Assembly: GCF_048403405.1 (NCBI RefSeq)
Contig: NZ_CP183129.1
Direction: 5' to 3' (one strand)
DNA length: 64,000 bases
DNA from: Escherichia coli
GTDB taxonomy: Bacteria; Pseudomonadota; Gammaproteobacteria; Enterobacterales; Enterobacteriaceae
Under the pieces are notes generated by a model that saw nothing but the letters and a program-made list of their open reading frames with translations, searched no databases and was not told the origin of the DNA. Made by a program: the position numbers and the translations under genes. Below are positions 44,891-46,875 of this stretch, one piece after another. The stretch's first letter is position 1. The number at the start of each line of letters is the position of its first letter.

Positions 44891-45064
44891 TTAAAACAGT
44901 GAAAACAACAGCGCCACCGGGAAACTCATCGGCCATGTTGCCCCCACCAGAAAGGCGCTTAAGAAACGGATGCGTTTCTTATCGTGAGAAAGAAACCAGG
45001 TGATAAGAAATGCGATTGCTGCCATAACCGCATAAAAAACAAGCATGTGTTGATAGAGAGACAT
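44891..45064 (-). CDS. ortT: Small membrane toxin OrtT (orphan toxin related to GhoT)
   Basis: 57 aa from MSLYQHMLVFYAVMAAIAFLITWF within ORF 44891..45139. Confidence 0.8.
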   Translation of the reverse strand: MSLYQHMLVFYAVMAAIAFLITWFLSHDKKRIRFLSAFLVGATWPMSFPVALLFSLF

Positions 45065-45258
45065 GTACGGGCGTCCAGCCAGATGAATAAAACGCGCGCA
45101 AATATGCGTCATTTTTTGACGTGCATCAAGTTTTATCACCAGTTTGAGAAAAAATCATCAAACAGCAACTTGCCCTTATCCATCTTCAGAATGAGTATTA
45201 TTGCGGATTTTCTTAACCCGTACTATACACATAGGGGCAATGATAAAAGGTGGCAAAA

Positions 45259-45354
45259 ATGAATGTTTCCAGTAGAACTGTAGTACTGATAAATGTCTTT
45301 GCTGCTGTTGGTTTGTTTACTCTTATCTCTATGAGATTTGGCTGGTTTATTTGA
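45259..45354 (+). CDS. yncL: Small stress-induced membrane protein (31 aa)
   Basis: ATG with AAAGGTGG SD; MNVSSRTVVLINVFAAVGLFTLISMRFGWFI; below the 60-aa ORF-track cutoff. Confidence 0.75.
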   Translation: MNVSSRTVVLINVFAAVGLFTLISMRFGWFI

Positions 45355-45377
45355 TGTAGTGATTTTGCACGCAGCAC

Positions 45378-45410
45378 GTACTGTCAGAGAAATCAGTGCT
45401 CTGACAGTAC
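45378..45410. repeat. Perfect 12-bp inverted repeat (stem-loop) between yncL and patD, no U-tract
   Basis: gtactgtcagag-aaatcagtg-ctctgacagtac. Confidence 0.6.
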
Positions 45411-45450
45411 GCAAGATCTTCTCATACTCTTACGATCTGCAATATTATCC

Positions 45451-46875
45451 TTAATGTTTAACCATGACGTGGCGGACGACGGTGTAATCCTCCAGCCCAT
45501 AAAGTGACATATCCTTGCCGTAACCAGAAAGTTTCTGCCCACCGTGCGGCATTTCACTTACCAGCATGAAATGGGTATTGACCCAGGTACAACCATATTG
45601 CAGCCGCGCGCTGACGCGATGCGCCCTGCCCACATCTTTCGTCCATACCGAGGATGCAAGTCCGTACTGGCTGTCATTCGCCCAGTTCACCACCTGTTCT
45701 TCGTTGTCGAAGAGCGTAACACTCACTACCGGACCAAATACCTCTTTTTGCACGATGGCATCGTCCTGTAATGCGCCAGCCAGCAACGTCGGTGCATAGT
45801 AATAGCCATTACCCTTGCGCTTTTCACCACCGGTGATCACTTTGATGTGCCCTGTCGCTTTCGCCTCTTCTACCGCCTTGCTGACGCGTTCGAGATGCGC
45901 CAGCGAGCTTAAAGGTCCAAGCTCCGTAGACTCGTCATCCGGTGCACCCGATTTTAACGTTGCCACTGCAGCACCGAGTTTTTCCACCAGCGTATCGTAA
46001 ATACCTTTTTGCGCGTAGATCCGACAAGCCGCAGTACAATCCTGTCCGGCATTGTAATAGCCAAAAGTACGTACACCTTCGACCACCGCTTCAATATCCG
46101 CATCATCAAAAACTATCACTGGCGCTTTGCCTCCAAGTTCCATATGAGTACGCTTTATGGACGGCGCGGTATGGCTGATGATGTGCTCGCCAGTGGCGAT
46201 AGAGCCCGTCAGCGACACCATCCGTACTTTGGGATGTCCGGTCAGCGGATCTCCCACCGTTTTGCCTCTGCCAAACAGTACGTTAATCACGCCTGCCGGG
46301 AAGATATCTTTCGCCAGCTCTGCCAACTTCAACGCGGTCAGCGGGGTAATTTCTGATGGTTTAAGCACTACACAGTTCCCTGCCGCCAGCGCCGGAGCCA
46401 GTTTCCACGCGGCCATCATCAGCGGATAATTCCACGGTGCGATCGAAGCCACGACCCCCAACGGATCGCGACGGATCATCGAAGTATGACCTTCAAGATA
46501 TTCACCTGCCGCCAGACCATTCAGACAGCGCGCCGCACCAGCGAAAAAGCGAAAAACATCGACAATCGCCGGGATTTCATCATTGAACGCACTATGCAGC
46601 GGTTTGCCACAATTACGGGACTCCAGTTCGGCAAAAACCTGACCATTTTCTTCGATAACATCAGCCAGTTTCAGCAGACATTCCGCACGCACTTTCGGCG
46701 TGGTTTGCCCCCATTCGGCAAATGCTGCATCTGCCGCGCGCACAGCAGCATCGACCTGCTCTGCGGATGCCTCGGCAATCTCCAGTAAAACGTCCCCCGT
46801 TGCCGGATTATAGACAGGCTGTTTTTCCCCTTCGCCGCTAACCAGTTCTCCGTTAATCAGTAACTTATGTTGCAT
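45451..46875 (-). CDS. patD: Gamma-aminobutyraldehyde dehydrogenase (aldehyde dehydrogenase family)
   Basis: 474 aa; ALDH catalytic motifs (ELGGKAP, ...CTAACR...). Confidence 0.93.

Follow-up and report, generated by a model that had tools for sequence, protein, structure and literature searches.

The stem-loops closest to the one analysed here were described by Dar and Sorek (2018), in whose model PNPase and RNase II trim Rho-dependent transcripts as far as a stable stem-loop; the precise 3' end follows a stem without U-rich tail, and C prevails over G in the downstream region (PMC6061677). Intrinsic terminators likewise place a stable hairpin soon after the stop codon with the RNA 3' end nearby, and are defined by a U-rich stretch of 7-8 nt right after the stem and by termination that is insensitive to Rho. 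REP elements are likewise extragenic palindromes, which are found between convergent genes and block 3' exonucleases. With regard to the gene in front of the hairpin, the closest described case is STnc1110 of Salmonella, a 'coding sRNA', i.e. a short transcript of sRNA size that encodes YncL and whose expression needs sigma-S (PMC5437024).

In E. coli, YncL is an already known inner-membrane peptide of 31 residues with a single helix. Its induction has been reported for stationary phase, minimal medium and heat shock (as cited in PMC12542507, where studies with tagged protein are cited as well), and its over-production depolarised the membrane and condensed the nucleoid (PMC12542507). Furthermore, YncL is among the in vivo substrates of RseP (PMC10470546), and yncL mRNA appeared in RNA-interactome data as a partner of RprA and KilS.

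Here we report on a yncL locus within 64 kb of E. coli DNA, the whole of which is called the window in the following. The region around positions 45259-45410, which belongs to the E. coli chromosome, had been noticed in a preliminary description because a small ORF is followed there by a perfect stem-loop without U-tract. In our judgement, this hairpin is likely the 3'-terminal stem-loop of the yncL mRNA, the transcription of which would be terminated by Rho further downstream and whose 3' end would be trimmed by exonucleases back to the stem.

The yncL gene and its product

The ORF on the + strand starts with the ATG at 45259 and includes the TGA that ends at 45354. Its 31 codons encode the peptide MNVSSRTVVLINVFAAVGLFTLISMRFGWFI, which corresponds to the WP_001303494.1 allele of the stress response membrane protein YncL. 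In the preliminary description the ORF was called 'yncL-like'; it is present as described, but the reservation can be dropped, as it is yncL itself. The peptide reached 72.5 bits with the NCBIfam equivalog model for YncL (NF000537, cutoff 35) over residues 1-30 of 30, and the yncL CDS annotated in an identical E. coli genome has exactly the same span. It also combines the features of YncL proteins, i.e. a length of about 30-31 residues, one hydrophobic helix and the C-terminal motif (M/L/V)RFGW, of which RFGW is retained in the orthologues P0005, P0007 and L020. A local Pfam-A search with the YncL peptide gave no match; the precomputed Pfam annotation on YncL orthologues is PF28073:YncL. The good Shine-Dalgarno sequence and the hydrophobic helix that had been claimed for the ORF were both found, the former as AGGTGG at 45248-45253, 5 nt before the ATG, and the latter as a hydrophobic stretch of residues 8-24. 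The Shine-Dalgarno sequence is kept in L002 and L094, which are divergent Escherichia, and in the Klebsiella-like lineage L091. Whether the ORF is translated, for which ribosome profiling had been proposed, is answered by published top-down mass spectrometry, in which native YncL was seen (PMC12529367).

The gene is annotated in approximately 5,400 of the 5,426 complete E. coli genomes. A 321-nt query around the ORF matched 5,415 of them, once per genome, with the annotations 'yncL: stress response membrane protein YncL' and 'patD' beneath the matches. The K-12 gene (b4598) shares with the window gene its position between ortT and patD and its length. Over 45100-45500, the window differs from K-12 at three sites, none of which falls into the hairpin. 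One of them results in Val13 instead of the Phe13 of K-12 YncL (WP_001310798.1), the two proteins being otherwise identical. This residue (window position 45295) is polymorphic, as Leu is found there in the divergent Escherichia L002 and L094. Moreover, an 82-residue stop-loss variant of YncL exists (protein P0002), in which translation runs through the hairpin into the 3' end of patD.

Promoter and neighbouring genes

The gene order in the identical genome is curA, mnaT, ydcZ, ydcY, ortT, yncL, patD and ydcV, which is the same as in K-12 MG1655. The yncL gene is flanked on both sides by genes of the opposite strand. It is convergent with patD (45451..46875, - strand), which encodes gamma-aminobutyraldehyde dehydrogenase and whose stop codon is 39 nt away from the hairpin, and divergent from ortT (44891..45064, - strand), which encodes the orphan toxin OrtT and lies outside the hairpin element. 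The divergent arrangement with adjoining ortT was found in every yncL-bearing lineage looked at, including L090, L091-L093, L094 and L020, and ortT also occurs without yncL (in L015, L017 and L018). In the OrtT paper, the intergenic RNA was tried as a possible antidote, whereas the YncL peptide was not tried. A weak published Term-seq 3' end exists on the - strand at 45096 (MG1655 1517357, +), 32 nt upstream of ortT, with an intrinsic terminator score of 3.18 and a Rho score of 0.5. It sits at a small hairpin (45092-45109) that was flagged by the terminator scan, and could represent an attenuator in the ortT leader or the end of patD read-through.

A putative yncL promoter was located at 45201..45229 on the + strand, consisting of a -35-like TTGCGG (45201-45206), a 17-nt spacer and C-TATACA (45223-45229), while TACTAT at 45221-45226 is an alternative -10 element. 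The block GTACTATAC at 45220-45228 is conserved, with TTGCGG situated 17 nt 5' of TATACA. Its CTATAC part is kept in Escherichia L002 and L094, in L090 and in the Klebsiella-like L091; the block together with TTGCGG is common to the Escherichia lineages and is shared in part by L090 and L091. As far as can be judged from these motifs, the block would fit a -10 element used by sigma-S/sigma-70, the start site is predicted at approximately 45235-45237, and the transcript would comprise roughly 180 nt.

The stem-loop downstream of yncL

The stem-loop occupies 45377..45411 on the + strand, i.e. 23-57 nt after the yncL stop. In the inverted-repeat search its arms CGTACTGTCAGAG (45377-45389) and CTCTGACAGTACG (45399-45411) were 100% complementary. 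The preliminary description was thus right in calling the stem perfect and slightly underestimated its length, which is 13 instead of 12 bp. Seven of the 13 pairs are G-C, and the loop has 9 nt. Folded alone, the hairpin has a free energy of -20.5 kcal/mol on the + strand and -19.7 kcal/mol on the - strand, which provides the folding energy that had been suggested as a check. For the complete 96-nt intergenic sequence, the fold on the + strand was better than in all of 200 shuffles (z = -3.3), and z = -2.2 was obtained for the - strand. The same palindrome is predicted to fold on the - strand as well, in any RNA that reads through from patD. Perfect hairpins with at least 12 bp and a loop of 3-12 nt occur twice in the 64-kb window, whereas 30 dinucleotide shuffles contained 0.03 on average, so perfect stems of such length are approximately 60 times rarer in shuffled than in window sequence. 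The second one, at 2396-2423 (AAAATGGCGCTT-CTTA-AAGCGCCATTTT), is bordered by A/T runs on either side and resembles a canonical bidirectional terminator.

The stem-loop itself, with its 13 bp and -20.5 kcal/mol, is what would be expected of an intrinsic terminator, but the U-tract is missing. The 10-12 nt that follow the stem read CAAGAUCUUCUC on the + strand and UGCUGCGUGCAA on the - strand, and neither contains a U-run, as had been noticed before. The immediate tails CAAGAUCUUC (+) and UGCUGCGUGC (-) likewise do not offer the 7-8 U-rich nucleotides right after the stem, and the consensus terminator scan did not call the hairpin at 45377-45411. The difference from intrinsic terminators extends to the RNA level, where the 3' end lies only 3 nt past the stem and is followed by Rho-sensitive read-through (see below).

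The resemblance to REP elements is limited in a similar way. The yncL hairpin occurs once per genome, shows no similarity to the REP consensus and belongs to no repeat family. We rejected membership in a REP/MITE repeat family because the hairpin is found at a single locus per genome; no other copy is present in the 64-kb window either. STnc1110 had first been named as an sRNA, while the search of 45137-45500 with the Rfam 15 covariance models gave no match even at E <= 10, i.e. Rfam provides no matching family for this part of the window.

Conservation among E. coli and relatives

A 45-nt query that covers the hairpin with 5-nt flanks (45372-45416) was found in 5411 of the 5426 E. coli genomes, always at a single locus; the second 'place' that is obtained per genome is the palindrome matching itself on the opposite strand. 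At least 99% identity was found in 4284 records. Another 1,089 records carry a 3-base variant of the loop (GTG to ACT), which adds an A-U pair atop the stem, and any other change of the hairpin is restricted to approximately 40 E. coli records. The stem is therefore essentially invariant in E. coli, and the loop is variable with two common alleles. Among the rare variants, ETEC1749 is changed in the loop only. In E29, a U-A pair became U.G and the outermost pair is lost, so that pairing is retained only on the yncL strand. In 99E2750, a G-C pair is replaced by A.C on the yncL strand and by G.U on the patD strand.

The divergent Escherichia L002 and L094 also keep the stem, with a compensatory exchange of U-A to C-G, for which E29 offers a U.G intermediate, an additional outer A-U pair and a diverged loop. 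L002 is approximately 90% identical in this region, and the flanks of both lineages differ far more than the stem. The covariation count over six sequences comprises 11 invariant pairs and one compensatory pair, which probably reflects one event, and its score was reached by 40 of 500 shuffles, which is too many for significance. The yncL orthologues of other genera also precede stable hairpins, which are unrelated to that of E. coli. These are U-less in L020 (Superficieibacter) and in L090, while the Klebsiella-like L091-93 have a canonical bidirectional terminator flanked by A/U. Hence, the stem-loop after yncL is conserved in kind and not in sequence, and the terminator type changes from lineage to lineage, as was anticipated by Dar and Sorek.

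On the other side of the hairpin, approximately 20% of the complete E. coli genomes have patD separated from the hairpin by an AT-rich island of about 1.3 kb, and the hairpin stays with yncL. In these genomes patD is followed by a small hairpin of its own, the tail of which is U-rich. The island is inserted between positions that correspond to window 45433 and 45451 (1,161 records fall into the 90-95% identity band), carries a gene for a CatB-related O-acetyltransferase (examples are L095, 3621-4959, and L085-L087) and has at either border CTTAAT(A/G)TTTA(A)C, which copies the 3' end of patD. E. albertii has neither yncL nor the yncL hairpin, and its patD is followed by a canonical terminator. 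Two more rearrangements should be mentioned. In strain SY033 (L088, 182-1410), an IS3-family element is located between the yncL stop and the hairpin, equivalent to window ~45355-45376, and represents a natural split of the gene from the stem-loop. In Escherichia sp. ESNIH1 (L017, 2923-3110), the gap between patD and ortT contains REP-like palindromes (GCCCGGTGGCGCTGCGCTTACCGGGCCTAC) and not yncL with its hairpin.

The RNA 3' end and the downstream Rho region

The mapping of 3' ends had been another of the proposed checks, and could be taken from the literature. The K-12 hairpin is identical to that of the window, the published Term-seq data were thus obtained with the same hairpin sequence. 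In supplementary file 1 of Adams et al., 2021 (PMC7815308), a curated 3' end is listed at MG1655 1517039 (-), printed with TTTGCACGCAGCACGTACTGTCAGAGAAATCAGTGCTCTGACAGTACGCAA before and GATCATCTCA after the end. We checked the coordinate transfer, which places this dominant steady-state RNA 3' end (...CAGUACGCAA-3') on the + strand at window position 45414. This is the second A of CGCAA and lies 3 nt past the G that closes the stem. It was supported by 75,264.6 reads in LB at OD 0.4, 536,300 in LB at OD 2.0 and 433,399 in M63 glucose (PMC7815308; the three read-count sheets were assigned to growth conditions according to the file caption). The end was thus found under three conditions, and its higher abundance in stationary phase and in minimal medium is the pattern reported for yncL. 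The authors labelled it 'antisense patD' because the annotation used lacked yncL, which is absent from their tables. None of the three Term-seq sheets gives a 3' end on the patD strand (MG1655 +) at the hairpin, and the yncL locus does not appear in the TERMITe supplements.

According to supplementary file 2 of the same study, a Rho termination region peaks on the yncL strand at 1516753 (Rho score 16.6, p = 5e-21; PMC7815308), which corresponds to window position 45700, 286 nt downstream of the 45414 end. Upstream and downstream coverage amounted to 220/9 in untreated cells and 106/72 with bicyclomycin (PMC7815308), so that the ratio of downstream to upstream coverage rose from 0.04 to 0.68, approximately 17-fold; the published score is a window statistic over 800 nt on each side, which characterises the region and not a specific promoter. 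This Rho sensitivity was demonstrated, as was the position of the 3' end, in K-12 with its identical hairpin. The base composition agrees with it. The + strand downstream of the hairpin, which is antisense to patD and untranslated, contains 443 C vs 317 G. The C/G ratio ranges from 1.2 to 2.4, with C exceeding G throughout, and shows a local maximum at the Rho peak, around which a C-rich and G-poor stretch (45675..45752, + strand) has a C/G of 2.17. As independent evidence, ExcludonFinder includes patD-yncL among the convergent pairs whose transcription units overlap in half or more of the MG1655 RNA-seq samples (PMC12288877). According to these data, transcription crosses the hairpin.

Origin of the 3' end

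In the explanation that we favour, yncL would be expressed as a short monocistronic mRNA, roughly 180 nt long. Because the hairpin has no U-tract, it would not stop RNA polymerase efficiently, and the enzyme would pass it and proceed along the antisense strand of patD, which is C-rich and not translated. Rho would then end transcription a few hundred nt downstream, where the published peak is located (~45700). The resulting heterogeneous tails would be trimmed in 3'-to-5' direction by exonucleases, according to the general model PNPase and RNase II, until these stall at the 13-bp stem. The outcome would be the precise and abundant end at 45414 and a protected body of the mRNA. The Term-seq end just after the U-less stem, the prevalence of C over G and the downstream Rho region together place the hairpin well within the class of Dar and Sorek (2018), for which a steady-state end right after a stable U-less stem-loop, here found under three conditions, and bicyclomycin-sensitive read-through into C-rich, G-poor sequence, here taken from published data, are characteristic. 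The earlier preference for a processing or stability element over a terminator is borne out by the distance of only 3 nt between stem and RNA end and by the Rho region 286 nt downstream.

The members of that class are likewise stable, have neither a U-rich tail nor an upstream A-tract, and the 3' end adjoins them. The yncL hairpin differs by its unusually long perfect stem of 13 bp and by its position between convergent genes, by which it is also included in antisense transcripts. The steps of the scheme are of different weight. A Rho step for the yncL transcript is suggested by the downstream region, and the bicyclomycin-sensitive read-through would begin at the yncL promoter; the RNA induced downstream by bicyclomycin may stem from yncL read-through or from an antisense promoter inside patD. 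Trimming to the stem is assumed for yncL by analogy with the described transcripts, and a stabilising effect of the hairpin on yncL mRNA would presumably follow the same model. Apart from that, the arrangement is ordinary, as the gene has long been known and the hairpin is a textbook case of a described class.

Among the alternatives, a weak, non-canonical intrinsic terminator deserves most attention, even though we think it rather improbable. Some polymerases would stop at the U-less stem and Rho would clear the read-through, a combination of inefficient intrinsic terminators with Rho backup that is allowed for by Dar and Sorek (PMC6061677). It would account for a very precise and abundant end at the same nucleotide in three conditions, and in the corresponding position the Klebsiella-like orthologue is followed by a true intrinsic terminator. 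However, there are only 3 U in the 10 nt past the stem, and the end is situated 3 nt past the stem, compared to 7-9 nt into the U-run of a terminator. The ~17-fold rise of relative downstream coverage on bicyclomycin and the overlap of the transcription units across the hairpin also speak against it, and the Rho score of 16.6 just downstream, although it applies to the region, is not what Rho-insensitive termination would give. Such a weak terminator and the Rho-dependent termination with trimming may coexist.

Slightly less probable still is that the hairpin mainly serves patD, either as 3' stem-loop of the ydcSTUV-patD mRNA or as a bidirectional element shared by both genes, which would be compatible with our main explanation. 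The - strand folds equally well 39 nt after the patD stop (-19.7 kcal/mol), and 99E2750 retains pairing only on this strand. But E29 shows the opposite, i.e. pairing only on the yncL strand, and the three Term-seq sheets list no MG1655 + strand 3' end at the hairpin. Moreover, the island that separates patD from the hairpin in approximately 20% of E. coli leaves the latter beside yncL, with patD having a different hairpin with U-rich tail, and the patD gene of E. albertii, where yncL is missing, manages with a canonical terminator and without such a hairpin.

Endonucleolytic cleavage as the origin of the 3' end, by RNase III on a yncL/patD duplex (an excludon) or by RNase E, is in our opinion very unlikely. 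RNase III usually needs roughly two helical turns, and the 13-bp stem is below this length. Furthermore, the end lies directly beyond the stem, where a stalled exonuclease would leave it, and patD is poorly expressed in those conditions in which the 3' end is abundant, because no patD 3' end is listed. Points in favour are the presence of patD-yncL in the published list of E. coli excludons (PMC12288877) and the changed abundance of yncL mRNA in RNase E or RNase III mutants (PMC3082872).

Finally, a function of the palindrome in the DNA, as site of a dimeric regulator or of recombination, is hardly credible despite the perfect inverted repeat kept across E. coli, its distance of ~20 nt from the junction of the variable island and the likeness of the outer TACTG...CAGTA to LexA half-sites, because the half-sites are spaced by 21 bp and not by 10 bp as in the LexA box, which was rejected on this ground, the junction of the island coincides with the patD stop and not with the hairpin, the RNA 3' end maps to the hairpin base, and the variation of loop length and sequence together with the G.U-type intermediate fits recognition of RNA over that of DNA.

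Significance for the yncL-patD region

The position of the hairpin between convergent genes invites a further reading, to which we give little credence: the palindrome would be functional on either strand and mark out a regulatory excludon, which couples YncL production to silencing or processing of ydcSTUV-patD. In this case, sigma-S-driven transcription of yncL may pass the U-less hairpin into antisense patD, checked only by Rho. The naming of STnc1110 as sRNA and the yncL chimeras with RprA and KilS imply that the yncL RNA could itself be a regulatory RNA. If the excludon exists, the production of YncL would be tied to the putrescine-catabolic ydcSTUV-patD mRNA.

Beyond annotation, the significance of the locus is slight. 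The yncL gene, the hairpin class and the 3' end are already known, and what needs correction is the published table, in which the 3' end is mis-assigned; the 'antisense patD' Term-seq end should be attributed to yncL. The example also illustrates that an ORF cutoff of 60 aa hides genuine genes such as yncL, and that a perfect hairpin without U-tract after a gene should be read as the protective 3' stem-loop of a Rho-terminated transcript and not as a failed terminator.
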